Positions 6,388 to 26,045 are shown, counted from the stretch's first letter. The stretch is DNA of 32,000 bases from Dickeya solani IPO 2222 (GCF_001644705.1 NZ_CP015137.1:2790001-2822000); one strand, 5' to 3'. A program made the numbers and translations. The notes: generated by a model from the letters alone, not told the origin.

Positions 6388-7335
6388 ATGGCCTATCCAA
6401 CTACTGGCACTTCCGGTATGGTCGGTTTTGCAAAAGCGGGTAGCACCACTGGCGGCACAGGCGGTACCGTTGTTTCTATTACCAGTCTTAGCGACCTGAA
6501 AACGCACGTGGCGGGAACGGATGCGAAAATTCTGGTGATTAACGCCAATATCAGCGCCAGCGCATTAACCAAAGTGACGCTGGGTGCGAATAAATCGATT
6601 ATTGGCTCTTATAGCAGTAATACGCTGACTAATATTCATTTTCGCAGTGCGTCGAGTTCGAAGAATATTATTTTCCAGAATCTGACGTTTAAGCATACCA
6701 GTACCATCAATGGCAATGACGATATTCAAATTTACCTCACGAGCGGCAGTAAATACTGGCTGGATCATCTCACCTTTCCCGGCCATGATTATACGCTGAC
6801 TGACGGCGGGTTGGATAAACTGATTTATATCGGTGAAAAAGCTGATTACGTCACCATTAGCAACTGCCTGTTTAAAAATCATGAATACGGTTTGATTTTC
6901 GGTTATCCGCAGGACGGCAGCAGCAATGGTTCAACCTACGACGGCTACCCGCACCTGACTATTTGCCACTGCTATTTCAGCAATATTTACGTGCGTGCGC
7001 CGGGGCTGATGCGTTATGGCTATTACCACGCCTATAACAACTTCATCGACAAATACCAACTGGGTTTCACGCTGGCGCAGAATGCCAAGATTGTGTCCGA
7101 GTATAACTATTTCGGCACTACCACCAGCAGTAACAAAGGGATGTTGGACGACAAAGGGACCGGGACCTTTACCGATACCGGCAGCACGCCGTCCATTACC
7201 AACCAGACCTCGTCGGCCAGCAAGTGGGCGCCGTCTTCCAATTACAGCTACACGCTGAAGACGGTTTCTGAAGCCAAAACCTTTACCCAGAAATACGCCG
7301 GAGTACAAAGCAGCAGCCTGACTTTCGGCGGGTAA
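6388..7335 (+). CDS. pectate lyase homologue (PL1-type parallel beta-helix), no signal peptide
   Basis: 315 aa. vWiDH-like motif YWLDHLTF (WLDH at 6757-6768). RAPGLMRYGYYHAYNN (6994-) resembles the PL1 RxPxxR-[YF]G-x2-H-x-[YF]NN block. Asp-rich NGNDDIQIY and DGGLDKLIY. AGGAG SD 7 nt before the ATG. Gene and upstream region are visibly AT-richer than the flanks. Confidence 0.8.
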   Translation: MAYPTTGTSGMVGFAKAGSTTGGTGGTVVSITSLSDLKTHVAGTDAKILVINANISASALTKVTLGANKSIIGSYSSNTLTNIHFRSASSSKNIIFQNLTFKHTSTINGNDDIQIYLTSGSKYWLDHLTFPGHDYTLTDGGLDKLIYIGEKADYVTISNCLFKNHEYGLIFGYPQDGSSNGSTYDGYPHLTICHCYFSNIYVRAPGLMRYGYYHAYNNFIDKYQLGFTLAQNAKIVSEYNYFGTTTSSNKGMLDDKGTGTFTDTGSTPSITNQTSSASKWAPSSNYSYTLKTVSEAKTFTQKYAGVQSSSLTFGG

Positions 7336-7510: not shown

Positions 7511-8101
7511 ATGATTACCCTCGCTCTCATCGACGATCACCTTATTGTCCGTTCCGGTTTTGCCCAACTGCTGGGGCTTGAGCCCGATATGCAGGTGGTG
7601 GGGGAATTCGGTTCCGGGCGCGAGGCGCTCGCGGGGCTGCCGGGGCGGGGGGTGCAAGTCTGTATCTGCGATATTTCGATGCCGGACCTCTCCGGACTGG
7701 AACTGCTCAGCCAACTGCCGAAGGGCATGGCGGTGATTATGCTGTCGGTGCACGACAGCCCGGCGCTGATCGAACAGGCGTTGAACGCCGGGGCGCGGGG
7801 GTTTCTCTCTAAACGCTGTAGCCCGGATGAGCTGATTGCGGCGGTGCGCACTGTTGCCGGAGGCGGCTGTTATCTGACGCCGGATATCGCCCTGAAACTG
7901 GCGTCAGGCCGGCGAGACCCGTTGACTCGCCGTGAGCGTCAGGTGGCGGAAAAGCTGGCGCAGGGGAGGGCGGTGAAAGCCATCGCCGCCGAATTGGGGT
8001 TGTCGCCGAAAACGGTCCACGTTCACCGGGCCAACCTGATGGAAAAACTGGGCGTCAATAACGACGTGGAGTTGGCCCGACGCATGTTTGAAGGCTGGTG
8101 A
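7511..8101 (+). CDS. uhpA: response regulator UhpA (NarL/FixJ family)
   Basis: 196 aa, nearly collinear with E. coli UhpA as I recall it ([25 protein letters not shown]...[10 protein letters not shown]). Receiver domain plus LuxR-type HTH. Confidence 0.95.
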
Positions 8102-9612
8102 TGCGCCCGATTGCTACCTGGCTTATCGCCGCCTTCGCCAGCTGTTTTATCTTCTCCGCCGCGTGGTTTTGCCTGTGGAGCATCAGCCTGCATCTGGTGA
8201 CGCGCCCGGATCTGGCCGCGCTGCTGTTTCCTTTCGGTTTGCGGCTGGGGCTGATGCTACAGTCGCCGCGCCGTTTCTGGCCGGTGTTGCTGGGCAGTGA
8301 ATGGCTGCTTCTGGTCTGGCTGGCGCAGGAAGTGGCGCTGGCGAATTTGCCGCTGCTGCTAACGGGCAGCGTGCTGGCGCTGCTGCCGGTGATGCTGGTG
8401 TCCCGACGGCCGCGCCAGGATGACTGGCACACCTTGCTGTTGCAGGGCGGCGCGCTGATTGCGGCGGCGCTGCTGCAATCCCTGCCGTGGCTCGGCCGCG
8501 GCGAAGAGGCGCTCACGGTGCTGCTGCTGACCCTGACCGGCGGACTGACGCTCTCGCCCACCTGTTTGCTGATCTGGCACTACCTATCCAGCTCGACCTG
8601 GTTACCGCTGGGGCCGTCGCTGGTTTCCCAACCGGTGAACTGGCGCGGGCGCCATCTGCTGTGGTATCTGCTGCTGTTTGTAGTCAGCCTGTGGCTGCAA
8701 CTGGGGCTGCCGGCGGAGTTGTCGCGTTTTACCCCGTTCTGTCTGGCGCTGCCGATCATTGCGCTCGCCTGGCACTATGGCTGGCAGGGCGCGCTGATCG
8801 CTACCCTGATGAACGCCATTGCGCTCATCGCCAGCCAGACCTGGCATGAACATCCGGTGGATTTGCTGCTCTCGCTGCTGGCTCAGAGCCTGACCGGGTT
8901 GCTGCTCGGCGCGGGGATTCAGCGCCTGCGCGAGCTCAACCTGTCGCTGCAAAACCAACTGGCGCGTAATCGCCGTCTGGCGGAGCGGTTGCTGGCGACG
9001 GAAGAATACGTACGGCGCGATGTGGCGCGGGAACTGCACGACGATATCGGCCAGACCATCACCGCCATTCGCACGCAGGCGAGTATTCTTCAGCGGCTGG
9101 CGCCGGAGAACCGCGGCGTGCTACAGAGCGGGGCGCTCATCGAGCAGTTATCGCTCGGGGTGTATGATTCGGTGCGCCGGCTGATGGGCCGCCTGCGCCC
9201 GCGTCAGCTGGACGATCTCACGCTGGAGCAGGCGGTGCGTTCGCTGATGCGCGAGATGGAGTTGGAAGCGCACGGCATCGTCAGCCATCTGGCCTGGCAC
9301 ATTGACGAAGCGTCGCTCAGTGAAGGATTACGGGTAACGCTGTTTCGCGTTTGTCAGGAAGGGCTGAACAATATTGTGAAACACGCCAGCGCCAGCGCGG
9401 TGACGTTGCAGGTCTGGCAGCAGGACGAGCGGCTGACGCTGGTGATCGAGGACGACGGCGGCGGGCTGCTGCCTGGGTCTGGCGCCGAAGGTTTCGGTCT
9501 GCTCGGGATACGCGAGCGCGTCACGGCGTTGGGCGGCACCTTACAGCTTTCCTGTACTCACGGCACCCGTTTAACCGTCAGCCTGCCGCTGCCCGCCGGC
9601 AAGGAGTCTTGA
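8101..9612 (+). CDS. uhpB: sensor histidine kinase UhpB
   Basis: N-terminal multi-pass membrane domain ([17 protein letters not shown]), H-box ELHDDIGQ, HATPase_c. ATG overlaps the uhpA stop as TGATG. A GTG at 8098 is an alternative start. Confidence 0.93.
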
Positions 9613-10958
9613 TGTCCAGTTTCCCTAACATTCGTTTCCTGACCATTCCCGCCAGCGCGCCGCCGCTGGCCGACCGTCAAGCCATTGATGAAACCTACCG
9701 TTACTGGCGTCGGCATATCCTGATTACGCTGTATTTGGGCTATGCGCTGTTTTACTTCACCCGCAAAAGTTTTAATGCCGCGGTGCCGGAGATCCTCGCC
9801 AGCGGACTGATGGCGCGTACCGATATCGGGCTGCTGGCGACGCTGTTTTACGTGACCTATGGCGTGTCGAAATTTCTCTCCGGTATCGTGAGCGACCGTT
9901 CCAACGCCCGTTACTTCATGGGCATCGGCCTGCTGGCGACCGGCGTGGTGAATATTCTGTTTGGTTTTTCCTCGTCGCTGTGGGCCTTCGCCGTGTTGTG
10001 GATGGCGAACGCTTTTTTTCAGGGCTGGGGCGCGCCGGTGTGCGCCAGGCTGCTTACCAGCTGGTATTCGCGCACCGAGCGCGGCGGCTGGTGGGCGCTG
10101 TGGAATACCGCGCATAACGTGGGCGGCGCGCTGATCCCGATGGTGGTGGGGGCGGCGGCGCTGCATTACGGCTGGCGCGCCGGGATGATGATCGCCGGCT
10201 CGCTGGCGATCGTCGCCGGGCTGTTTTTATGCTGGCGGCTGCGCGACAAGCCGCAGACCCTTGGCCTGCCAAGCGTGGGCGAATGGCGTCAGGATGCGCT
10301 GGAGATCGCCCAGCAGCAGGAGGGCGCCGGGCTGTCGCGCCGGGAAATCCTGCATAAATACGTGTTCACCAACCCGTATATCTGGCTGTTGGCCTGCTGT
10401 TATGTGCTGGTGTACGTGGTGCGCGCCGCCATCAACGACTGGGGCAACCTCTACATGTCGGAAACGCTGGGGGTCGATCTGGTGACTGCCAACTCGGCGG
10501 TGACGATGTTCGAACTGGGCGGGTTTATCGGCGCGCTGGTGGCCGGCTGGGGGTCGGACAAGTTGTTTAACGGCAACCGTGGCCCGATGAACCTGATTTT
10601 TGCCGCCGGCATTTTGCTGTCTGTCGGTTCGCTATGGCTGATGCCGTTCGCCAGCTATGTGATGCAGGCCGCCTGCTTCTTCACTACCGGTTTCTTCGTC
10701 TTCGGCCCGCAAATGCTGATTGGCATGGCGGCGGCCGAATGTTCCCACAAAGATGCCGCCGGCGCCGCCACCGGGTTTGTGGGGCTGTTCGCCTATCTTG
10801 GCGCGTCGCTGTCCGGCTGGCCGCTGGCGCGCATCATGGATGTGTGGCACTGGAGCGGTTTTTTCGCGGTGATCGCCGTGGCGGCCGGTATCTCGGCACT
10901 GCTGTTGTTGCCTTTCCTGCGCGCTTCCTCGCCGCGCGCCACAACCGATGTAGCGTGA
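9612..10958 (+). CDS. uhpC: MFS sugar-phosphate sensor protein UhpC
   Basis: 448 aa MFS organophosphate:Pi antiporter family, paralogous to UhpT. ATG overlaps the uhpB stop (TGATG), with AAGGAG at 9601-9606. The track ORF start at 9351 is an out-of-context extension. Confidence 0.9.
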   Translation: MSSFPNIRFLTIPASAPPLADRQAIDETYRYWRRHILITLYLGYALFYFTRKSFNAAVPEILASGLMARTDIGLLATLFYVTYGVSKFLSGIVSDRSNARYFMGIGLLATGVVNILFGFSSSLWAFAVLWMANAFFQGWGAPVCARLLTSWYSRTERGGWWALWNTAHNVGGALIPMVVGAAALHYGWRAGMMIAGSLAIVAGLFLCWRLRDKPQTLGLPSVGEWRQDALEIAQQQEGAGLSRREILHKYVFTNPYIWLLACCYVLVYVVRAAINDWGNLYMSETLGVDLVTANSAVTMFELGGFIGALVAGWGSDKLFNGNRGPMNLIFAAGILLSVGSLWLMPFASYVMQAACFFTTGFFVFGPQMLIGMAAAECSHKDAAGAATGFVGLFAYLGASLSGWPLARIMDVWHWSGFFAVIAVAAGISALLLLPFLRASSPRATTDVA

Positions 10959-10969
10959 TTCGCTTCACT
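10954..10969. promoter_or_regulatory. candidate CRP site of the uhpT promoter
   Basis: cGTGA-ttcgct-TCACt matches TGTGA-N6-TCACA at 8/10 positions. Centre at 10961.5, which is about -103.5 from the predicted start at ~11065. Confidence 0.5.
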
Positions 10970-10990
10970 CTTTTGTCCTGAATCGGCGAA

Positions 10991-11011
10991 AACCAGGAAA
11001 ATTTCCTAGTT
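10991..11011. promoter_or_regulatory. candidate UhpA-binding inverted repeat
   Basis: aaccAGGAAAaTTTCCTagtt is a 21-bp palindrome with one mismatched pair, centred at 11001, about -64 from the predicted start. Confidence 0.55.
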
Positions 11012-11052
11012 TAAGCAGGACGTTCCCTCAGGCCCGTCTTTTCGGCGCTGCT

Positions 11053-11058
11053 TACAAT
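11053..11058 (+). promoter_or_regulatory. uhpT -10 hexamer (activator-dependent promoter, poor -35)
   Basis: TACAAT. The sequence 17 bp upstream (aggccc) does not resemble TTGACA, as expected for a UhpA/CRP-dependent promoter. Confidence 0.5.
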
Positions 11059-11098
11059 GCGAACAAACATAAGGCCGCGCGAACAAACATAAGGCCGC
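11059..11098. repeat. perfect tandem duplication, 20 bp x2 (gcgaacaaacataaggccgc)
   Basis: 11059-11078 and 11079-11098 are identical. Begins right after the -10, so it covers the predicted transcription start and early 5' UTR of uhpT. Confidence 0.95.
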
Positions 11099-11128
11099 AG
11101 GCCGTCACGTCCCGCAAGAGGAAACATC

Positions 11129-12520
11129 ATGCTCAACTTTCTAACCCAGGTGCGTAAGCCAACGCTGGATCTGCCGCTCGATGTGCGGCGCAAAATGTGG
11201 TTCAAGCCGTTCATGCAATCCTATCTGGTGGTGTTCATCGGCTACCTGACCATGTATTTGATCCGTAAGAACTTCAACATTGCGCAGAACGACATGATCA
11301 GCACCTACGGGTTGAGCATGACGCAGCTCGGCATGATTGGCCTGGGTTTTTCGATAACTTACGGCGTAGGGAAAACGCTGGTGTCCTATTATGCGGACGG
11401 CAAAAACACCAAACAGTTCCTGCCGTTTATGCTGATCCTCTCCGCCATTTGCATGCTCGGTTTCAGCGCCAGCATGGGGACTGGCTCTGTAAGCCTGTTT
11501 TTGATGATCGCGTGCTATGCGTTGAGCGGATTTTTCCAGAGCACCGGCGGGTCGTGCAGCTATTCCACCATCACGAAATGGACGCCGCGCCGCAAACGCG
11601 GCACCTATCTGGGGTTGTGGAATATTTCCCACAACCTCGGCGGCGCGGGCGCGGCGGGTGTGGCGCTGTTCGGCGCCAACTACCTGTTCGACGGCCATGT
11701 TGTCGGGATGTTTATCTTCCCGTCGGTCATCGCGCTGATTGTCGGTTTCATCGGTCTGCGTTTCGGCAGCGACTCCCCGGAAGCCTACGGTCTGGGGAAA
11801 GCGGAAGAGTTGTTTGACGAGGCGCTCTCGGAAGAGGACAAGGAGGCGGAAGACGGCGCCATGACCAAATGGCAGATCTTCGTCGAGTATGTGCTGAAAA
11901 ACAAAGTGATCTGGCTACTGTGTTTCTCCAACATCTTCCTGTACGTGGTGCGCATCGGTATCGACCAGTGGTCTACGGTTTACGCCTATCAGGAACTGAA
12001 GCTGCCGAAATCGGTGGCGATTCAGGGCTTCACGTTGTTTGAGGCTGGCGCATTGGTGGGCACGCTGCTGTGGGGCTGGCTGTCGGATCTTGCCAACGGT
12101 CGCCGCGGGCTGGTGGCCTGCATCGCGCTGGCGTTGATCATCGCAACGCTTGGCGTTTATCAGCATGCCAGCAACCAGTATGTCTATTTGTCGTCGCTGT
12201 TTGCGCTGGGCTTTTTAGTGTTCGGCCCGCAGTTGCTGATTGGCGTGGCCGCCGTCGGTTTTGTGCCGAAGAAAGCCATTAGCGCCGCCGACGGCATCAA
12301 AGGAACGTTCGCCTATCTGATTGGCGACAGCTTCGCCAAGCTGGGGCTGGGCATGATCGCCGACGGCACCCCGGTCTTCGGGCTGACCGGCTGGGCTGGC
12401 ACCTTTGCCGCGCTGGACGCCGCGGCGATCGGCTGTATCTGCCTGATGGCGATAGTGGCGGTGATGGAAGAGCGCAAAATCCGCCGCGAAAAACGCCTGC
12501 GCCAGACGCCAGCGGCCTGA
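11129..12520 (+). CDS. uhpT: hexose-6-phosphate:phosphate antiporter UhpT
   Basis: 463 aa, the same length as E. coli Uhp[35 protein letters not shown]-terminus, MFS fold. AGAGGA SD. Confidence 0.95.
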
Positions 12521-13752: not shown

Positions 13753-15315
13753 ATGAATAAGGGAAGAAGCCTGCTGGCAGGCATTATTGGCAGTTTTATT
13801 ATTATGCTGCCGGTTTCATCAGGAATGGCTGAAGAAGAGGCTCCAACTGCTTCGGTATCGGCGGCGAAAATTGTTACCAAAGCCGATTTTTCTTATACCG
13901 CTAATGTGCTTTCCGTCGCATTTGATGGCGGTCTATCTTCTTTTGATCTCGGTCGTGCTGGTACTTATCAGTGGGATTTTGGTGATGGTACGACATCCAC
14001 CGAAATCAGGCCGCAGCATACTTATGCCAAAGAAGGACTCTATACCGTTTCCCTTACGGTGAAGGATGTCAATGGCCATACCAAAACTGGCCGGGAAAAG
14101 ATATCGGTTCGTTCAGCCAAGACCGGATTCGAGAATGGTTGGCAATTAGGGAGTGAGCGCTCGTATGAGGGAGCGATGCAACCTATGCACATGTGTACTA
14201 CTCAGTCACCGAATTGGGTCAGCATTGTGGATCTGAAGGATGAAGGAATTAGCACGTCTGATATCGTTGGTACTAAGGCGATTAAAAGTTTTTGGACTGA
14301 GACAGGCTATGACTACACGACACATCCAAGACTGAGACGTGGTGCGGAAGCCTGCGCTGGCCCGGATAATGGTACACAAAAAGAGGCGTGGATAGGGTTT
14401 ATGGTGTACCTGCCCTCGAAAGGCTATCCCATGAATAAACGTGGCGGTATTTTCCAGTTGTTTAGTGGTAACGGCAGTTGTACATCATGGGCAGGGATGT
14501 TGACGGTGGTCAATAACAGCCTGATGTTTTCACATCGTACTGGGTGTGTGACGCCAACTGAACCTACCCTCGTTAAGGATATTCCGCGAGATCGCTGGAT
14601 TCCGGTAATTGTTCATGTGGTGGTATCACGTCAGCAGCAAGGTCAGGTCGAGTTATGGTTTGATGGTGCGTCGAAAGATAAGCCGACCTATAGCGCGAAA
14701 AACATCAATTTTGGTTTTGGTGTATGGCGTGATGATGACACCATTGAAGGCCGTATGCATTTTACTTTTGGGCAATATGCCTGGGATGAGTCTAACTACA
14801 CACCTAACGAAACTCGGGTCAACTATTTTGACAATATCCATATTGTCAATGAAGGTCGTGACGATGGCTGGGAGGATGTCAACCCACTGACGGCTCACAA
14901 CCAGTACACCGGCGCACAGGTATGGGCGAACAGGCAGTGGGAAGGCAACGGTGCTCAGCGAGCATTTGATGGTGATATTACCACCAAGTATGCAGCTAAT
15001 GAGAGCAATACACCGCTTTACTTACAATATCGTTTCCCTAAAGGTGAGTCATTACAGGCCGTTCGTTATAAGATCAGCAGCACCGACTCCTCCACAGACA
15101 CACGCTATCCTCGAGACTGGACGTTGCTGGGGTCGAATGATGGCGTGACCTGGAATACGCTTGACCAACAGATGAAGCAGTATTTTGGTAAACGTGCAAC
15201 CCGTGAATTTCAGGTTGCGACACCGGGGGAATATTCCTACTACCGATTGCGTATTGATGCCAATAATGGCGCTAATGGTACAGAAGTCGGTGATATTGTT
15301 TTGTTGGATAAGTAA
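13753..15315 (+). CDS. secreted multidomain protein: signal peptide, PKD domain, concanavalin-like polysaccharide-lyase-like domain, F5/8 type C (discoidin/CBM32-like) domain
   Basis: 520 aa. Signal peptide ...MLPVSSGMA|EEE. PKD signature YQWDFGDGTTS...YTVSLTVKDVNG (~13876-14088). Central WIGFMVYLP / IFQLFSG / RWIPVIVHVVVS..GQVELWFDG / FTFGQYAW pattern resembles the heparinase-I/glucuronan-lyase type 'Polysacc_lyase' fold. C-terminal FDGDITTKY...WTLLGSNDGVTWNTL...YYRLRI (~14935-15306). AGGAG SD. AT-rich gene. Confidence 0.75.
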   Translation: MNKGRSLLAGIIGSFIIMLPVSSGMAEEEAPTASVSAAKIVTKADFSYTANVLSVAFDGGLSSFDLGRAGTYQWDFGDGTTSTEIRPQHTYAKEGLYTVSLTVKDVNGHTKTGREKISVRSAKTGFENGWQLGSERSYEGAMQPMHMCTTQSPNWVSIVDLKDEGISTSDIVGTKAIKSFWTETGYDYTTHPRLRRGAEACAGPDNGTQKEAWIGFMVYLPSKGYPMNKRGGIFQLFSGNGSCTSWAGMLTVVNNSLMFSHRTGCVTPTEPTLVKDIPRDRWIPVIVHVVVSRQQQGQVELWFDGASKDKPTYSAKNINFGFGVWRDDDTIEGRMHFTFGQYAWDESNYTPNETRVNYFDNIHIVNEGRDDGWEDVNPLTAHNQYTGAQVWANRQWEGNGAQRAFDGDITTKYAANESNTPLYLQYRFPKGESLQAVRYKISSTDSSTDTRYPRDWTLLGSNDGVTWNTLDQQMKQYFGKRATREFQVATPGEYSYYRLRIDANNGANGTEVGDIVLLDK

Positions 15316-15517: not shown

Positions 15518-16552
15518 GTGAGGTTTTCCTCAGTGTCTCGCATTATTATAGCGGCGTGTATAGTCGGTATAGCTGCAAGCTGTAAACCCGGTTTTCCATC
15601 CCAGGTGTTTGAAGGCAAAACCATGGGCACCTTCTATAGCGTGAAGATCAGCGGAGAGTTGCCGGAAAGTCGTCAGCAGTTACAGCAGGAGATCGATGCC
15701 TTGCTGGAGCAGGCCAACAACGAGATTTCCACCTATCGTAACGACTCGGTGTTGTCCCGCTTTAACCGCGACACCGGCACGGACCCGCAGCCGATCAGCA
15801 ATGGCATGGCGGATATCATTCTGGCCGCGCAGCGTATCGGCCGGGCGACGGGCGGGGCGATGGATATCACCGTGGGGCCGCTGGTCAACCTGTGGGGATT
15901 CGGGCCGCAGAAGCAGCCGGTGGCGATTCCCAGCCAGCAGCAGATTGATGAGGCGCGGCGTAAAGTCGGGCTGAACCATCTTCGCCTTATCAGCGATCAT
16001 CAGGGCGAGTGGTTGCAGAAAGATCTGCCGGGCCTGTATGTGGATCTCTCCACGCTGGGTGAGGGTTACGGCGCGGACCTGCTGGCGCAACTGATGACCC
16101 GCAAAGGCATCACCAACTATCTGGTCTCGGTGGGCGGCGCGATTTCCAGCCGCGGCGTCAACGGGCAGGGTCAACCCTGGCGGGTGGCTATTCAAAAACC
16201 CACCGACAAGGAGAACGCCATTCAAGCGGCGGTCGATCTGCACGGCTACGGTATCAGTACCTCCGGCAGTTACCGCAACTATTTCGAGCTGGAAGGCAAA
16301 CGCTATTCCCATGTTATCGACCCGGCCACCGGTCGGCCGATTACGCATCAGCTGGTTTCTGCCACCGTGATTGCCAGAACCGCGCTGGAGGCGGACGGCT
16401 GGGACACCGGGCTAATGGTGCTGGGCACCGAAAAAGCGTTGAAGCTGGCGGAACAGCAGGGGCTGGCAGTCTATTTGATTACCAAAACCGATAAGGGATT
16501 CGAGGCGGTGATGACGCCGCAGTTCAAAGCGTTTCTGTTGCCGACGCCATAA
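15518..16552 (+). CDS. apbE: FAD:protein FMN transferase ApbE, lipoprotein form
   Basis: 344 aa. GTG start 6 nt after AAGGAG. Lipobox IAAS|C. ApbE hallmarks MGTFYSVK, the GEGYGADL region and HVIDPATGRP. Confidence 0.9.
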   Translation: MRFSSVSRIIIAACIVGIAASCKPGFPSQVFEGKTMGTFYSVKISGELPESRQQLQQEIDALLEQANNEISTYRNDSVLSRFNRDTGTDPQPISNGMADIILAAQRIGRATGGAMDITVGPLVNLWGFGPQKQPVAIPSQQQIDEARRKVGLNHLRLISDHQGEWLQKDLPGLYVDLSTLGEGYGADLLAQLMTRKGITNYLVSVGGAISSRGVNGQGQPWRVAIQKPTDKENAIQAAVDLHGYGISTSGSYRNYFELEGKRYSHVIDPATGRPITHQLVSATVIARTALEADGWDTGLMVLGTEKALKLAEQQGLAVYLITKTDKGFEAVMTPQFKAFLLPTP

Positions 16553-16712: not shown

Positions 16713-18149
16713 ATGAATCACTTTATTCTGAATAATCAGCCTGTTTCGGCTGATGTTATTTCACAGCACCTTTCTCGTATGCAAGCAGTCGCCGCCGACT
16801 GTCCGCTGACAATCCCCGAACGTATTTCTATTCTGAATCGCTGTATTGAATTGTTGAAAGCGCATCAGGATGAACTGTGCGAGGCTTACAGTCAGGATTT
16901 CGGCTATCGTGCTCCCGGCAACACGCTGATTTCCGATATTCTCGGCTCCATTGATGCGTTACGTCACTCGGCGCGCCATCTGGAGCAATGGGCGGAGGAA
17001 GAGCAGAGAATCTCGCCGTTTCCCGGCACTCGGGTGGTGGTGGAGTACAAGCCGCTGGGCGTGATTGGCGTCATGAGTCCGTGGAATTTCCCGCTGGTGC
17101 TGACGTTTGGCCCGTTGGCCGGGGTGATCGCCGCCGGTAACCGGGCGATGATTAAGCCCTCCGAACTGGCTGAAAACGGTAGCCGGCTGCTGTGCCGGCT
17201 GATCGCGGAACGGTTCGCCGAAGACGAAATCTCGACATTACAGGGCGGCGTTGAAGCGTCAAAGCGGTTCTCGTCGCTGCCGTTCGACCATCTGGTGTTT
17301 ACCGGCAGTACTGCTACCGGCAGGCAGGTGATGAAGGCCGCGGCGGAAAACCTCACCCCTGTAACGCTGGAGCTGGGCGGCAAATCGCCGGTCATCGTGT
17401 CGCACGGCAGCGACATCGTTCTGGCGGCGCAGCGCATAATGACCGTCAAAACGTTTAATGCCGGGCAGATTTGCATCGCGCCCGACTATGTGCTGGTGCA
17501 CCGGGATGATTTGCCGGCGTTGGTTGAACAGGCCTGTGCGTTTCTGCGCCAGACCTACGGGACGTTTATCGAAAACCGCGAATACACCTCCGTGATCAAT
17601 GCCCGTCAGACCGCACGGCTGAAAGCACTGCTGGATGACGCGCGTAATCAGGGGGCGACACTGGTGTGCGCGACGGCGGAGGCGGACGATTTGTCTCATC
17701 GGCGTATGGCGCCGACGCTGGTGATCAACCCACCGCTCACTGCCCGAATTATGCAGGAGGAAATCTTCGGGCCGTTGCTGCCGGTGATCGCCTATGACCA
17801 TATCGAGCAGTGCCTGACGCTCATCAACGGGATGGATCGTCCGCTGGCGACTTACTATTTCGGCGACAATCAGCAAGAGATCGCGCAGGTCCGGCAGCAT
17901 ACGCTATCCGGTGCGCTGGTCATCAATGATGTCATGAGCCATGTGCTGGTGCATGACATTCCGTTCGGTGGCGTCGGCGCGTCGGGGATGGGGGCTTATC
18001 ACGGCGATATCGGTTTCAAACGGTTCTCGCATGCGCGGCCGGTGTTTTACCAGAGCTCCGGCGGCGAATCCAACCTGCTGATGCGGGCGCCGTTTGATGA
18101 GGTGTCCCGTCGGTTGGTCGCACAATTGATCGACGGAGATATCACTTGA
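16713..18149 (+). CDS. NAD(P)+ aldehyde dehydrogenase, ALDH3 / coniferyl-aldehyde-dehydrogenase-like
   Basis: 478 aa. ELGGKSP glutamate motif and FNAGQICIAPDYVLV catalytic-Cys motif. Size and motif spacing are typical of CALDH-type enzymes. Confidence 0.85.
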   Translation: MNHFILNNQPVSADVISQHLSRMQAVAADCPLTIPERISILNRCIELLKAHQDELCEAYSQDFGYRAPGNTLISDILGSIDALRHSARHLEQWAEEEQRISPFPGTRVVVEYKPLGVIGVMSPWNFPLVLTFGPLAGVIAAGNRAMIKPSELAENGSRLLCRLIAERFAEDEISTLQGGVEASKRFSSLPFDHLVFTGSTATGRQVMKAAAENLTPVTLELGGKSPVIVSHGSDIVLAAQRIMTVKTFNAGQICIAPDYVLVHRDDLPALVEQACAFLRQTYGTFIENREYTSVINARQTARLKALLDDARNQGATLVCATAEADDLSHRRMAPTLVINPPLTARIMQEEIFGPLLPVIAYDHIEQCLTLINGMDRPLATYYFGDNQQEIAQVRQHTLSGALVINDVMSHVLVHDIPFGGVGASGMGAYHGDIGFKRFSHARPVFYQSSGGESNLLMRAPFDEVSRRLVAQLIDGDIT

Positions 18150-18165
18150 GGTGCATCGATTATAT

Positions 18166-18190
18166 AGGCCGCCGCAGGGCGGCCTTTTTA
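18166..18190 (+). terminator. rho-independent terminator after the ALDH gene
   Basis: aggccgcc (18166-18173), loop gcag, ggcggcct (18178-18185), then ttttt. Confidence 0.85.
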
Positions 18191-18318
18191 TGCCGGCAAT
18201 GTATCAGGGAAAGGAATAAATAACTGCGTCGGTAGAGAATATAGGCTTACAAAAAACAAGGAGAACCAACAGCAGTATTCTGGACAGGGTAATTATGAAC
18301 CGGTGTTTTATTTATTGC

Positions 18319-18355
18319 GCACTGCCCGTCATGTTTTAGATTGTCCGGGCAGTGC
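18319..18355. repeat. 10-bp perfect-stem hairpin at the edge of a GC-rich block in an AT-rich spacer
   Basis: gcactgcccg (18319-18328) / cgggcagtgc (18346-18355), 17-nt loop. Confidence 0.8.
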
Positions 18356-18526
18356 CCAAACCCCTCACGTACTCCGTGTCTACCCCTTGCTCCGCGAGGC
18401 TTCCCGTGTCCAGGCTGGCTGCGCCAATTACGCCTATTGGGGGAGGTGCTTATTCAGGTAAATAAGGCGTTATTTTATTTTAAATAAATGTGAACAGTTT
18501 ATTTTTGAATGAACCACTCTTTAAAC

Positions 18527-18539
18527 AACGTTATGACAT
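18527..18539. promoter_or_regulatory. 13-bp direct repeat copy 1 (AACGTTATGACAT), candidate regulator site
   Basis: Identical 13-mer recurs at 18603-18615, 76 bp downstream. Both are upstream of the flavoenzyme gene. Confidence 0.4.
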
Positions 18540-18550
18540 AATAGTGGAAT

Positions 18551-18568
18551 ATTAGTTAATTAACTAAT
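18551..18568. promoter_or_regulatory. perfect 18-bp palindrome ATTAGTTAA|TTAACTAAT, candidate operator
   Basis: Exact dyad between the two AACGTTATGACAT copies, ~130 bp upstream of the start codon. Confidence 0.4.
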
Positions 18569-18602
18569 TTGATTATTTATAAACTAAAAAGACAATCATA
18601 TT

Positions 18603-18615
18603 AACGTTATGACAT
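18603..18615. promoter_or_regulatory. 13-bp direct repeat copy 2 (AACGTTATGACAT)
   Basis: Identical to 18527-18539. Confidence 0.4.
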
Positions 18616-18699
18616 CGGCCCGCTAAGCAAAATCAAAAACAATAAACCGATAACAAATTTAAAGCCTATGAAATATTTTTAATTATGGAGTCACTGACT

Positions 18700-21477
18700 A
18701 TGAACATGAACCACCAGGTACTGAGTCCGTTTATCTTGCCAAATGGCGTCGAGCTTAAAAATCGTCTCCTGATGGCGCCTATGACCACCTGTACCGGCTT
18801 TTATGACGGAACCGTCACCAAAGAACTGGTGGAGTACTATCAGGTGCGCGCCGGCAGTATCGGCGCGGTGATCGTTGAATGCTGCTTTATCGATGATAAA
18901 GGGCTGGCGTTTCCGGGCGCGATTGGCATCGACACTGATGACAAGGTCGCCGGGCTGGCGAAAGTCGCCTCAGCCATCAAGGAGAAGGGCTCAAAAGCCA
19001 TTCTGCAGATTTACCACGGCGGCCGCATGGTGGAACCGAAGCTGATTGGCGGCCGGTCGCCGGTCGGGCCGAGCGCCGTTGCCGCGCCGCGAGAAGGCGC
19101 CGCGGTTCCGATCGCGCTGACGGGCGAAGAGGTGGAAGCCATGATCGCCAAATTTGGCGAAGGGGTACGCCGCGCCATTGAAGCCGGTTTCGACGGCGTG
19201 GAAATTCACGGCGCCAATACCTACCTGATTCAGCAGTTTTACTCCCCGAACTCCAACCAGCGCACCGACGAATGGGGCGGCAGCCGCGACAACCGCGCCA
19301 GATTCCCGCTCGCCGTGCTGGAGATTACCCACCAGATGGCACGCCAGTATGCGGATGCATCCTTCATCATCGGCTATCGCTTCTCGCCGGAGGAAATCGA
19401 AGAGCCGGGCATCCGGTTTGACGACACCCTGTACCTGCTGGAAAAACTGGCGGCGCGCGGGCTGGATTATCTGCATTTCTCAATGGGGTACACCCTGCGC
19501 TCGTCCATCGTCGATACCACCGATCCCACCCCGCTGATTGGCAAATATGTCGCGATGCGCTCTGACACGCTGGCTAAGGTGCCGGTCATCGGCGTCGGCG
19601 GCGTGGTGAATAAAGCGGATGCCGACGCGGCGCTGGAGCACGGTTACGATCTGGTGGCGGTGGGGAAAGCCTGTATTGCCTATCCGGACTGGACCGATCG
19701 CCTCATCAATCAGCAGAAGCTCGAACTGTTTATCGACAGCACCCAACGTGAAGCCCTGACCATCCCAGAACCGCTGTGGCGTTTCTCGCTGGTGGAAGCG
19801 ATGATCCGCGACATGAGCCTGTCGTCGAAAAAATTTAAGGCGGGCGTCTTTCAGGAAAAAGTGCAGGACGACGCCGGCGAACTGGTGATCAACGTCAGTC
19901 TGGAAACGGACCGCATCGCCGATGTGACGCTGGAACCTAATCCGCAACTGAATACCGATTTCGTCAGCAGCTTTGAGGTTATCCGTTCCCGCATTCTTGA
20001 CGCCAATAGCCCGCATGTGGATGCGGTCACCGGTGCCACCACCCAAAGCGAAGCGGTGAAAAAAGCGGTGTCCAAAGCGCTGGCCAAGTCCTGCAAGGCG
20101 GCGATTATGGCGGAAGGCGGCGACCCGGCGGACATGCAGCGTTATGACGTGGTGGTGATCGGCAGCGGCGGCGCCGGTCTGGCCGCGGCGATTCAGGCGT
20201 GCGATGACGGCGCCAGGGTGCTGATTGTCGAGAAGATGTCCAGCATCGGCGGCAATACCATCAAGGCTTCCGTGGGCATGAATGCGGCGGGAACCCGCTT
20301 CCAAAAAATAAAAGGTATCGTAGACGACAAGCAGCGCTTCTACGAGGAGACTCTGAAAGGCGGTAAGCTAAAAAATAATCCCGATTTGCTGAAACGATTC
20401 GTGGAAGGCGCGCCGATGGCGATCGAGTGGCTGGCGGAGCGCGGCATCGAACTGAACGACATTACCATTACCGGCGGCATGAGCGTGGATCGCACCCACC
20501 GACCGGCGGATGGCTCGGCGGTCGGCGGCTTCCTGATCAGCGGTCTGGTGAAAAACATCAACAAACGCAATATTGATGTGATGCTGGAGACGTCGGTTGT
20601 CGACATCCTCCATGAAGCCGGTGCGATTACCGGTGTACAGGTGCTTAACGAGGACAATGAACAACTGACCATCGCCACCAAAGGCGTGGTGGTCGCCACC
20701 GGCGGATTCAGCGCCAACCGCGAGATGGTGGTGAAATATCGCCCGGATCTGGACGGTTTTGTCACCACCAACCATAAAGGCGCCACCGGCAGCGGCATCG
20801 CGATTCTGGAGAAGGTGGGCGCCGATACCGTCGATCTGGGGGAAATTCAGATCCACCCGACGGTCGAGCAAACCACGTCTTACCTGATCTCCGAATCCAT
20901 TCGCGGCGGCGGCGCGATTCTGGTGAACCAGCAGGGGCATCGCTTCTTTAACGAGATGGAAACCCGCGATAAAGTGTCGGCGGCGATCATCAACCTGCCG
21001 GAGAAGTACGCCTATATCCTGTTTGATGAGCAAGTGAGAACCAAGAACAAGGCGGCGGACGAGTATCTGTCTCGCGGTTTTGTGGTCAGCGCCTCTTCTC
21101 CGCGCGAACTGGCGGACAAGCTGGCTATCGACTTTCACGCTCTGCTGGCGACGCTGGAGCGCTATAACCAGTTTGTCGAAAACCAGCATGACGACGACTT
21201 CGGCCGTAAAACCGCGTTGCGTCATCCCATCAATCAGGGGCCGTTCTACGCTATCCGCATCGCGCCCGGCGTGCATCACACCATGGGCGGCGTGGTGATC
21301 AACACCGATACCGCGGTGCTGGACAACAAGAAACGGGTGATCCGGGGCGCTTTCGCCGCCGGTGAAGTGGTGGGCGGCATCCACGGCGGCAATCGCATCG
21401 GCGGCAACGCCGTCGCCGATATCATCGTTTTTGGTATTCAGGCGGGCCGTAACGCGGCATCCTACGTACAGATGTAA
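18700..21477 (+). CDS. three-domain soluble flavoenzyme: OYE-like NADH:flavin oxidoreductase + FMN_bind (covalent-FMN) domain + FAD_binding_2 fumarate-reductase/urocanate-reductase-like domain (2-enoate reductase, substrate unknown)
   Basis: N-terminal OYE motifs (LKNRLLMAPMTT, QIYHGGRM, FDGVEIHGANTYLIQQF..NQRTDEWGGS). Flavinylation motif D-A-V-T-G-A-T at 20020-20040. Rossmann YDVVVIGSGGAGLAAAIQA. Fcc3-like HPT...ESIRGGGAILVN and HHTMGGV. No signal peptide. The ATG at 18700 has GGAG 9 nt upstream; the track start at 18685 lacks an SD. Confidence 0.9.
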   Translation: MNMNHQVLSPFILPNGVELKNRLLMAPMTTCTGFYDGTVTKELVEYYQVRAGSIGAVIVECCFIDDKGLAFPGAIGIDTDDKVAGLAKVASAIKEKGSKAILQIYHGGRMVEPKLIGGRSPVGPSAVAAPREGAAVPIALTGEEVEAMIAKFGEGVRRAIEAGFDGVEIHGANTYLIQQFYSPNSNQRTDEWGGSRDNRARFPLAVLEITHQMARQYADASFIIGYRFSPEEIEEPGIRFDDTLYLLEKLAARGLDYLHFSMGYTLRSSIVDTTDPTPLIGKYVAMRSDTLAKVPVIGVGGVVNKADADAALEHGYDLVAVGKACIAYPDWTDRLINQQKLELFIDSTQREALTIPEPLWRFSLVEAMIRDMSLSSKKFKAGVFQEKVQDDAGELVINVSLETDRIADVTLEPNPQLNTDFVSSFEVIRSRILDANSPHVDAVTGATTQSEAVKKAVSKALAKSCKAAIMAEGGDPADMQRYDVVVIGSGGAGLAAAIQACDDGARVLIVEKMSSIGGNTIKASVGMNAAGTRFQKIKGIVDDKQRFYEETLKGGKLKNNPDLLKRFVEGAPMAIEWLAERGIELNDITITGGMSVDRTHRPADGSAVGGFLISGLVKNINKRNIDVMLETSVVDILHEAGAITGVQVLNEDNEQLTIATKGVVVATGGFSANREMVVKYRPDLDGFVTTNHKGATGSGIAILEKVGADTVDLGEIQIHPTVEQTTSYLISESIRGGGAILVNQQGHRFFNEMETRDKVSAAIINLPEKYAYILFDEQVRTKNKAADEYLSRGFVVSASSPRELADKLAIDFHALLATLERYNQFVENQHDDDFGRKTALRHPINQGPFYAIRIAPGVHHTMGGVVINTDTAVLDNKKRVIRGAFAAGEVVGGIHGGNRIGGNAVADIIVFGIQAGRNAASYVQM

Positions 21478-21548
21478 TTAACGCCAGCCCTGCGTCAGAA
21501 GCCTTTCTGGCGCAGGCATGATTCGCTTCTCTTCCGGGGTTATCCGCC

Positions 21549-22523
21549 ATGCCGCCAGACGATCGGGTTTACGCCTATTCCACCGTACTCATGGGGTCGC
21601 CGATTCTTCTCAAATTGTTTGAGCCGAATGAGCATCTGGCCTCGCAGGTGTTTGGCCGCATTAAACAACTGGAGGATGCGTTGACCGTTAACCGGGCGGA
21701 CTCCGAAGTCATGGATATCAACCGTGCGGCAGGCAAACACCCGGTCGTCGTCAGTCAGCCGCTGTTCAATCTGATTAAGCGCGCCAGAGAGGTCAGCCTG
21801 CTGGACGACAGCTGCTTCAATTTCACCATCGGACCGGTGGTCAAACGCTGGAAAATCGGCTTTCAGGGCCACAGCGTGCCGCCCGCTGACGAATTGCAGG
21901 CGTTACTGGCGTTGACCGACCCGCGTCACGTCGTGCTCAATGCGCAGGCGCGCTCGGTATGGCTGGAAAAGACGGGGATGGAAATCGATCTGGGGGCGAT
22001 CGCCAAAGGGTATATCGCCGATGTCGTCAGGCAATTCCTGTATCAGCACCATGTCTACCATGCGTTGATCAATCTGGGCGGCAACGTGCTGGCGCTCGGC
22101 AGACCGCAAAACGGTAGCCAGACGGCCTGGTCGGTAGGATTGCAAAAACCGTTTGGCGACAACGGCGAGCTTATCGGCCTGGTTCACGTAGCGAACAAGT
22201 CGGTGGTGACGTCCGGCATTTACGAGCGTTATTTCGAATGCGATGGCCGCCGGTATCACCATATTCTCGACCCAAAAACCGGCTACCCGCTGGATAACGA
22301 ATTGCTCAGCGTGACCATCATTTCCGATGCCTCCATCGACGGAGACATCTACACCACCCTGATTTACGGTCTGGGGGTGGAAAAGGGGCTGACGTACCTG
22401 TCCCGGTTACCGCATATCGAAGCCATTTTCGTGACCAACGACCGGCGGGTGATTCTCTCCTCGCAGCGACAATATGATTTTACGCTGTTGGATGCGGGGT
22501 ACGAGGTCGCTGCGATGCGGTAA
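21549..22523 (+). CDS. ApbE-family FAD:protein FMN transferase, leaderless (predicted cytoplasmic)
   Basis: 324 aa. Begins directly at the conserved core (YSTVLMGSPILLKLF, DLGAIAKGYIAD, HHILDPKTGYP). No signal peptide or lipobox, unlike the paralogue at 15518. Lies 71 bp downstream of the flavoenzyme gene. Confidence 0.85.
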   Translation: MPPDDRVYAYSTVLMGSPILLKLFEPNEHLASQVFGRIKQLEDALTVNRADSEVMDINRAAGKHPVVVSQPLFNLIKRAREVSLLDDSCFNFTIGPVVKRWKIGFQGHSVPPADELQALLALTDPRHVVLNAQARSVWLEKTGMEIDLGAIAKGYIADVVRQFLYQHHVYHALINLGGNVLALGRPQNGSQTAWSVGLQKPFGDNGELIGLVHVANKSVVTSGIYERYFECDGRRYHHILDPKTGYPLDNELLSVTIISDASIDGDIYTTLIYGLGVEKGLTYLSRLPHIEAIFVTNDRRVILSSQRQYDFTLLDAGYEVAAMR

Positions 22524-25222: not shown

Positions 25223-25234
25223 ACAAGGTATTTT

Positions 25235-26045
25235 ATGACATCAAATAAACCCATCGCGCTGGTTACCGGCGCCTCATCGAGCTACAGCGGAACTGTTGGT
25301 ACAGGCCGGCTATAAGGTATACGGCACCAGCCGACGAGGCTCTCAGGCTGGTCACCGACGGTTTGAGCTGCTGGCGCTGGATGTGACCAGCGATGAATCG
25401 GTCGATGCGGCCGTCAGCGAACTGCTGCTGCGGGAAGGGCGTATCGATCTACTGGTGAATAACGCCGGTTTTGGACTCAGCCCGGCAGGTGCGGAAGAAA
25501 GCTCTATCGAACAGGCTAAGGCGATCTTCGACACTAATTTCCTTGGGGTTGTCCGCATGACCCGTGCCGTGGTGCCCTGCATGCGCCAACAGGGTAGCGG
25601 CCGTATCATCAACATCGGTTCCATTCTTGGCGTAGTACCCATGCCTTATGTGGCGCTTTACGCAGCCAGCAAGCATGCGGTCGAAGGCTATTCAGAAGCG
25701 CTGGATCATGAGCTGCGAACCCGCGGTATTCGGGTTTCGGTTATCGAGCCCGCCTATACCAAAACGCAGTTCGAGTCGAACAATGTGCCGCCGGACGCAA
25801 CGTTGGATGAATACGCCACGGTACGCCGGGCGCTGGGCAAGGTGGTGAAGCTGGCGATGGAGAACGCGGACGATCCGGTTGTGGTGGCCGAGGTGGTGCT
25901 AAAAGCCGCCCGCGCGAAACGCCCGAAGCTTCGCTATACGGCAGGTTCAACGGCGACCCGCTTGAGCCTGCTGCGTCGGTTTGCACCGGCGGGTGTGCTG
26001 GATTCCGGCATTCGTAAGAGTCTTCAGCTTGACGTACCGGCGTGA
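25235..26045 (+). pseudogene. SDR oxidoreductase disrupted by a frameshifting deletion in the Gly-rich cofactor motif
   Basis: The ATG at 25235 (AAGG SD) gives MTSNKPIALVTGASS, then runs out of frame to a TAA at 25313. The +1 frame continues (R)ATAELLVQAGYKVYGTSRR... to 26045 (track ORF 25296..26045). The expected G-I-G between the two pieces is missing at ~25279/25280. Confidence 0.75.

Follow-up and report, generated by a model that had tools for sequence, protein, structure and literature searches.

Frd and ApbE2 of Dickeya solani, a predicted cytoplasmic NADH:fumarate reductase and its flavin transferase

The 32,000-nucleotide stretch of Dickeya solani IPO 2222 analyzed here (GCF_001644705.1, NZ_CP015137.1:2790001-2822000; "the window" refers to this whole stretch, and positions are counted from its first letter) carries two adjacent genes, frd and apbE2. 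They very probably form a module of two genes that provides a soluble, cytoplasmic NADH:fumarate oxidoreductase, the orthologue of FRD/ApbE2 of Klebsiella. The architecture of the proteins, their motifs, the synteny and their topology (absence of export signals) were established directly, and their orthology to the Klebsiella pair is very probable.

The frd open reading frame extends over 18685..21477 on the + strand (930 aa). The start was assigned to the ATG at 18700, which aligns across 14 enterobacterial genera and is preceded by a Shine-Dalgarno sequence, GGAG (18687-18690, +), located 9-10 nt 5' of it. The resulting protein (18700..21477) counts 925 aa. After a spacer of 71 nt follows apbE2 (21549..22523, +), which encodes a protein of 324 aa matching the full-length Pfam ApbE model (E 1e-83). 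Every domain or family match for the two genes is far above chance level.

Frd is composed of three domains. The N-terminal domain (residues 9-340; 18724..19719, +) belongs to the Old Yellow Enzyme (OYE) family (Oxidored_FMN, PF00724; Pfam E 9e-72, OYE matches in the PDB at E 1e-46) and contains the His170/Asn173/Tyr175 triad (HGANTYL). By homology to Klebsiella FRD, it is predicted to be the NADH-oxidizing module, with a non-covalent FMN. The middle domain, FMN_bind (residues 397-461; 19888..20082, +; Pfam E 2e-6, 28.6 bits for a cut-off of 22), is the predicted carrier of a covalent FMN relaying electrons. It harbors the ApbE flavinylation motif DAVTGAT (D441-T447; 20020..20040, +), which fits the consensus D-x-x-[S/T]-G-A-[S/T] and whose D, G, A and T447 do not vary in any of 121 homologues. 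The predicted acceptor is Thr447, with its codon at 20038-20040. The C-terminal FAD_binding_2 domain (residues 483-905; 20146..21414, +; Pfam E 3e-80) is the predicted site of fumarate reduction, and HPT (719-721), Arg756 and HHTMGG (859-864) are all present. A sequence-only reading, made by a model, had already described this OYE-FMN_bind-FAD protein of 925 aa, its DAVTGAT motif with a phosphoester-linked FMN on residue 447, and the HPT…R and HHTMGG blocks; all were found again at exactly the same coordinates, and the predicted flavinylation site is supported. Scanned for a CxxCH heme motif, a cytochrome domain, a signal peptide or a hydrophobic N-terminus, the Frd sequence showed none of these; hence, the protein is predicted to be cytoplasmic.

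The closest matches of Frd are found in Dickeya dadantii (99% identity), followed by D. fangzhongdai, undicola, oryzae and zeae (92-97%), Musicola (89%), Brenneria (82%) and, at 76-80%, Rahnella, Ewingella, Enterobacter, Kosakonia, Raoultella and others. The exact Frd sequence is present on 42 contigs and belongs to a cluster made up of proteins from D. dadantii and D. solani. Klebsiella is absent from the 80 species-representative genome loci that make up the neighborhood survey; its sequences were reached through the 90%-identity cluster of the Raoultella orthologue, which has 7,406 members, among them many proteins of 925 aa from K. pneumoniae, K. oxytoca and K. aerogenes. Frd and a K. pneumoniae member of this cluster (other than the UniProt entry B5XRB0) share 76% identity and 87% similarity over 920 residues without a single gap, both being 925 aa long. 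Per domain, the identity is 81% for OYE, 64% for FMN_bind and 75% for FAD.

K. pneumoniae FRD (KPK_2907, UniProt B5XRB0) has been described by the Bogachev/Bertsova group as an OYE-like + FMN_bind + FAD_binding_2 protein. It contains a non-covalent FMN, a phosphoester-linked FMN and a non-covalent FAD, expected in a 1:1:1 ratio for an enzyme of this type; its OYE domain oxidizes NADH and its FAD domain reduces fumarate. According to a 2025 review, two ApbEs exist in K. pneumoniae, a lipoprotein and an enzyme lacking a signal peptide, and the cytoplasmic one is essential for the flavinylation of the soluble fumarate reductase. The source works, as cited elsewhere, are Bertsova et al. 2014 (BBA) and 2020 (FEMS Microbiol Lett); in its title and summary, the 2014 paper speaks of "localization-controlled specificity". 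The Dickeya pair agrees with this system in domain order, length, flavinylation site (Thr447, in DAISGAT in Klebsiella and DAVTGAT in Dickeya), fumarate-binding and proton-relay residues, including a serine at the position of Thr377 of the Shewanella fumarate reductase Fcc3, the leaderless ApbE gene directly 3' of frd, and a further ApbE, an exported one, encoded at another place in the genome. In the literature text, neither the string DAISGAT nor the Thr447 numbering was found for Klebsiella FRD. All sequence-testable defining features of a Klebsiella-type FRD/ApbE2 are present, and the Dickeya pair thus appears to be a close copy, an orthologue, of an enzyme pair already characterized in Klebsiella. 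The differences are as follows: the genus is another one; apbE1, the gene for the exported ApbE, precedes frd by only 2 kb; and the pair sits outside the cluster of fumarase, DASS transporter and two-component genes that surrounds it in the Raoultella locus (L064, a proxy for Klebsiella) and in most Enterobacterales loci examined.

The substrate was approached through a residue-by-residue alignment of Frd with Fcc3 (PDB 1QJD; E 5e-115). With sequence matches at E 1e-114, the fold is settled. In the C1-carboxylate motif, Fcc3 His365 corresponds to His719 (codon 20854-6) and Thr377 to Ser731 (20890-2). The proton-relay residues Glu378 and Arg381 are Glu732 (20893-5) and Arg735 (20902-4) in Frd. 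Arg402, part of both the C4-carboxylate motif and the relay, is Arg756 (20965-7), while the remaining C4-carboxylate residues, His504 and Arg544, are His859 (21274-6) and Arg899 (21394-6), all codons being on the + strand. In the same alignment, Met375 is replaced by Leu729. These seven motif residues (His719, Ser731, Glu732, Arg735, Arg756, His859 and Arg899) are invariant in 121 enterobacterial homologues and the same in Klebsiella. Moreover, the clamp helix (727-742) and the other pocket segments do not vary between Dickeya and 11 other genera. The serine at position 731 is normal for the group: in an alignment including Kp_Frd, the C1 pair is given by the FRD authors as "His and Thr(Ser)".

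The C1-carboxylate motif (Fcc3 His365 and Thr(Ser)377) is what distinguishes fumarate reductases from those of acrylate, urocanate and methacrylate. For example, the NADH:acrylate reductase ARD of Vibrio harveyi has a methionine at the fumarate C1-binding histidine, and Glu378/Arg381 are not conserved, leaving one relay arginine (ARD was compared through the residues stated in its paper, without a sequence alignment). The acrylate reductase of S. woodyi carries Gly and Tyr. Neither the acrylate marker (Met) nor the urocanate markers (Tyr, no Glu) are present in the active site of Frd, and the match of the FAD domain to Fcc3 reaches 388 bits, that to the urocanate reductase UrdA 293 bits. In the ARD paper, Dickeya zeae is said to have "ARD-like" genes; all D. 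zeae orthologues of frd have a histidine at position 719, hence this remark must concern a different paralogue. Fumarate is strongly predicted as the substrate of Dickeya Frd. The sequence-only reading had left the substrate unknown and considered plant-derived 2-enoates plausible. This was too cautious, and the proposal of plant 2-enoates is not supported, in view of the 76% identical, collinear and probably orthologous Klebsiella protein, the full set of fumarate motifs, the missing Met and Tyr/no-Glu signatures and the fumarase/dicarboxylate context in relatives. Its caution that domain order by itself does not give the specificity was fair and is echoed by the authors describing the Vibrio ruber NADH:cinnamate reductase Crd, who state that the classical residues do not fully predict specificity in this reductase family. 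The alignment that it proposed as a check matched all the motif residues of Fcc3 and of the Klebsiella protein and showed the absence of the UrdA signature and, by the published residues, that of ARD.

Comparison with other reductases leads to the same placement. ARD (P0DW92) shares the OYE-like/FMN_bind/FAD_binding_2 order, NADH as the donor and a covalent FMN put by ApbE on the Thr of DxxSGAT; it differs by the methionine mentioned above, where Frd has His719 together with Glu732 and Arg735, and is larger (calculated at 112 kDa with its tag). The FAD domain of Fcc3 aligns end to end with that of Frd and all catalytic residues are conserved, for which reason the same hydride and proton mechanism is expected. 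Fcc3, on the contrary, is periplasmic and receives its electrons from an N-terminal tetraheme domain, whereas Frd, predicted to be cytoplasmic, lacks a heme motif, has a predicted OYE-bound FMN and covalent FMN, and shows the substitutions Thr377 to Ser and Met375 to Leu. Crd has a PF03358 NADH domain, requires a second subunit, CrdA, is redox-regulated and has an acrylate-reductase-like substrate pocket; no PF03358 protein is encoded near frd, and the N-terminal domain of Frd is PF00724. Hence, of the Klebsiella and Vibrio enzymes to which the sequence-only reading likened this layout, the NADH:fumarate reductase of Klebsiella and the acrylate reductase of V. harveyi share it, and the V. ruber enzyme does not. 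UrdA of Shewanella oneidensis (6T85), the second-best structural family (E 3e-86), has the FMN_bind (covalent FMN) and FAD_binding_2 core in common with Frd. It is periplasmic, without an OYE domain, with Tyr373 in place of the histidine, no relay Glu, and Asp388 for the imidazole ring. The kinetoplastid NADH:fumarate reductase is also intracellular, with a covalent FMN from a dedicated intracellular ApbE, but this ApbE is fused to the reductase, and the NADH module is FAD_binding_6 instead of OYE. Taken by its sequence features, Frd is neither an ARD, Crd or UrdA nor a true flavocytochrome c.

The second gene of the module, apbE2, probably encodes a FAD:protein FMN transferase of the ApbE/Ftp family. 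Its top PDB match is 7ESA (E 2e-74), followed by Treponema pallidum Ftp (E 3e-58), while the matches to the V. cholerae, E. coli and Salmonella enzymes are weaker (about 1e-33 to 1e-37). The alignments to 7ESA and 4IFU show the active-site blocks GAIAKGY, TSGxYER and HHI[LI]DPxTG and the D..T metal site. The ApbE domain begins at residue 15, after a charged, non-hydrophobic N-terminus (MPPDDRVYAYS), and ApbE2 has no lipobox. No in-frame extension 5' of apbE2 that could encode a signal peptide was found here or in the 80 orthologues, all of which have kept the leaderless state. This bears out the earlier statement that the gene following frd is an ApbE without export signal.

The window contains a further ApbE gene, apbE1 (15518..16552, +), which the sequence-only reading had not listed and which lies outside the frd-apbE2 module. 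ApbE1 possesses a lipobox, IAAS/C, at residues 18-22 (…GIAAS/C), and passes the NCBIfam ApbE equivalog (594 bits for a cut-off of 498), which ApbE2 fails (140 bits). The two proteins are only 28% identical. ApbE1 is the one serving periplasm-facing targets and, being exported, cannot reach Frd, which corresponds to the "localization-controlled specificity" of the 2014 Klebsiella paper. Both apbE genes are located within 7 kb, and in D. undicola (L001), apbE1 stands directly 5' of frd with a gap of only 843 bp.

The residue of ApbE2 that corresponds to T. pallidum Ftp Asn55 and to E. coli Ftp Tyr60 is an asparagine, Asn48 (codon 21690-21692). In Ftp proteins, this position decides between FAD binding only and FAD hydrolysis as well, and the E. 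coli Ftp variant Y60N acquires FAD pyrophosphatase activity. The canonical enterobacterial ApbE is an exported lipoprotein in which the Tyr stacks on the flavin. ApbE1 has a Tyr at this position, and the Asn is found in 80/80 ApbE2 orthologues, which would put them all in the "FAD-pyrophosphatase-capable" Ftp class. The low equivalog score, the missing lipobox and Asn48 together point to a distinct cytoplasmic subfamily, as in Klebsiella. There is a small possibility that a cytoplasmic ApbE2 of this type also hydrolyzes FAD and thereby affects the FAD/FMN pool.

The surroundings of frd in other Enterobacterales are well conserved. In about 75 of the 80 loci, apbE2 follows directly 3' of frd. 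In 71-75 of them, the upstream, divergent genes encode a DASS (Na_sulph_symp/CitMHS) transporter and a class-I fumarase of 548 aa, and the downstream, convergent genes a response regulator of 239 aa and a DcuS/CitA-type sensor kinase (sCache_3_2/SPOB_a/HATPase_c); Rahnella has, in addition, a malic enzyme beyond the cluster, an example of which is locus L082 (1-13230). This fumarase/transporter/frd-apbE2/sensor cluster is a coherent malate/fumarate-to-succinate module. With this would agree the abstract of a 2020 FEMS Microbiology Letters article, which reportedly describes induction of Klebsiella FRD by fumarate or malate under anaerobic conditions only. The association with C4-dicarboxylate genes is a comparative observation of this analysis and not a published criterion. 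In Brenneria, the fumarase and the transporter are kept and the sensor pair is gone. No statement on the conserved cluster in more than 70 species, or on its erosion in the Pectobacteriaceae, was found in the literature examined. Two loci, of Erwinia sp. V71 (L038) and Winslowiella arboricola (L076), contain a second frd copy without an adjoining apbE2, the one of W. arboricola beside a DASS transporter; this suggests that one ApbE2 may serve two Frd paralogues.

In Dickeya, the pair is surrounded by genes for an aldehyde dehydrogenase (ALDH), an aldo-keto reductase, short-chain dehydrogenases (SDRs), quinone-reductase-like proteins and a TetR regulator. As partners of Frd, these were rejected, none being conserved beside frd outside Dickeya. 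The ALDH gene (16713-18149, +), between apbE1 and frd, has as its top NCBIfam match a benzaldehyde dehydrogenase MdlD-like model, under the cut-off. It was also discarded individually, as it is missing even in D. undicola, at the equivalent site; its presence or absence is an insertion or deletion within Dickeya. A strong intrinsic terminator 3' of the ALDH gene (18166..18195, +; inverted repeat I2), consisting of an 8-bp GC-rich stem followed by TTTTT, sets frd-apbE2 apart as its own transcription unit. A stem-loop in the frd-apbE2 spacer (21489..21516, +; 12-bp stem, no U-tract, dG -25.7 kcal/mol) is not significant in comparison with shuffled sequences (z-score only -1.5); it may process or stabilize the mRNA, or be nothing.

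The regulatory region of frd (18480..18699, +) contains several blocks that, by alignment, 14 enterobacterial genera have in common: a perfect palindrome of 18 nt (18551-18568) with the half-sites ATTAGTTAA and TTAACTAAT (together ATTAGTTAATTAACTAAT), the block AACTAAAA, a -10-like CATATTA (18597-18603) and the block ATGACATCGG (18610-18619). In these 220 nt 5' of frd, Dickeya keeps the blocks common to the genera with the full cluster. Their retention suggests that the same kind of regulation as in the cluster-bearing relatives probably persists. A 13-nt direct repeat, AACGTTATGACAT, is specific for Dickeya and present in two copies 76 nt apart (18527-18539 and 18603-18615). Both the palindrome and these repeats are candidate operator sites for a regulator. 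An ArcA-box reading of AGTTAATTAA was dropped, as the conserved element is an inverted repeat and not a direct repeat. Further upstream, a GC-rich hairpin (18315-18359; 14-nt arms, 17-nt loop) without Rfam match is embedded in the AT-rich 500-bp region 5' of frd; it might be REP-like or serve as the terminator of a small RNA. The Rfam scan gave no RNA family within or around the locus.

The flavin content, electron path, substrate and role proposed for Frd are drawn by analogy from the Klebsiella, Vibrio and Shewanella enzymes. ApbE2, devoid of an export signal, would stay in the cytoplasm and, using FAD and Mg2+, transfer FMN to the hydroxyl of Thr447 through a phosphoester bond. NADH would then reduce the non-covalent FMN of the N-terminal OYE-like domain, from which electrons would reach the non-covalent FAD in the C-terminal domain by way of the covalent FMN. 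This FAD would give a hydride to fumarate, gripped at its C1 carboxylate by His719 and Ser731 and at its C4 carboxylate by Arg756, His859 and Arg899. Arg756 would donate the proton, supplied by the Glu732-Arg735 relay, and succinate would be the product. In its putative role, Frd would reoxidize NADH under oxygen limitation, bypassing the respiratory chain.

Several observations speak against this assignment to a fumarate reductase. No fumarase, DASS transporter or two-component genes are present in the 32-kb window or in the D. undicola locus, and, with these neighbors absent in Dickeya, the contextual support comes from relatives only. The scans of 18200-18700 for an FNR box (TTGAT-N4-ATCAA) and for the sigma-70 consensus gave no match, and thus lend no support to anaerobic regulation. 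Furthermore, the K. pneumoniae sequence used in the comparison is not B5XRB0 itself but that of another protein with this architecture and length. The loss of the fumarate context and the new neighbors leave some room for a different 2-enoate acceptor (acrylate, cinnamate or hydroxycinnamates, urocanate) served by the same NADH -> FMN -> covalent FMN -> FAD machinery, since a plant pathogen meets phenylpropanoids in its host and the Crd authors do not consider specificity fully predictable. This is improbable: His719, Ser731, Glu732 and Arg735 form the fumarate-type set, unlike in ARD, UrdA and the S. woodyi enzyme, all pocket segments are the same as in orthologues still surrounded by the fumarate context, Crd differs in its NADH domain and in having a second subunit, and even within Dickeya the new neighbors lack conservation, the ALDH gene being missing in D. 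undicola. A slightly less probable variant supposes that the Dickeya lineage cut frd-apbE2 out of the cluster and maybe re-purposed it for a plant-derived 2-enoate or for detoxification, with a specificity shifted by residues that lie apart from the classical motifs, and under the control of a regulator that uses the retained 18-nt palindrome.

The same loss of context, the lack of a detectable consensus promoter and the frameshift in a neighboring SDR gene could also be taken to mean that frd-apbE2 is a decaying remnant, stranded after the loss of its partners and little or not expressed. This is very unlikely, as both reading frames are intact, conservation extends to the promoter blocks and the Shine-Dalgarno sequence, and the identity of Frd amounts to 92-99% among D. 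dadantii, solani, fangzhongdai, undicola, zeae and oryzae and to 89% for Musicola, the catalytic residues being invariant throughout. In Dickeya and many other Enterobacterales, databases name the proteins otherwise, as a periplasmic "flavocytochrome c" and, in some records, a "thiamine biosynthesis lipoprotein ApbE". Indeed, the FAD part of Frd passes the NCBIfam flavocytochrome c equivalog (628 bits for a cut-off of 542), which is explained by the model covering this part only (residues 446-924). This naming has next to no probability and is refuted at the sequence level: Frd is without CxxCH, cytochrome domain or signal peptide, ApbE2 is without lipobox or leader, and it is the other gene, at 15518, that encodes the true lipoprotein. 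The same kind of name is found in D. dadantii 3937, where the leaderless ApbE2 is called "Thiamin biosynthesis lipoprotein ApbE"; "flavocytochrome c" is likewise attached to a Frd free of heme motifs. An NADH:fumarate reductase with its flavin transferase hence accounts best for the pair.

The remainder of the window (uxaBA, a pectate lyase, uhp-like genes, the end of rpoD) fits Dickeya. The pectate lyase gene (6388-7335, +) lies in a low-GC patch and is followed by a uhpABC-T-like cluster for sugar-phosphate sensing and transport (7511-12520, +) and by a gene (13753-15315, +) for a secreted-looking protein with PKD, polysaccharide-lyase and F5/8-type-C domains, without NCBIfam match. Downstream of apbE2, the short-chain dehydrogenase gene at ~25225-26045 (+) appears frameshifted: the frame encoding the N-terminal "MTSNKPIALVTGASS" (Rossmann motif) stops, and the rest continues in another frame from 25296. 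This is either a pseudogene or a sequencing error. The stretch 27600-31000 has a low GC content (about 40%), with open reading frames without Pfam matches and a Bro-N domain protein, and adjoins a tRNA (31138-31210, -) and the 3' end of rpoD (31475-31957, -); it looks like a small element integrated at the tRNA.

As probable orthologues of a known pair, frd and apbE2 do not open a new kind of system. The chief value of their identification is a better annotation, in Dickeya and many other Enterobacterales, as a predicted cytoplasmic NADH:fumarate reductase with its private flavin transferase. The conserved cluster and its erosion in the Pectobacteriaceae may aid the study of the regulation of this enzyme family. 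For soft rot, the module offers a plausible means of reoxidizing NADH in macerated tissue, poor in oxygen and rich in malate and fumarate, independently of the membrane-bound FrdABCD.

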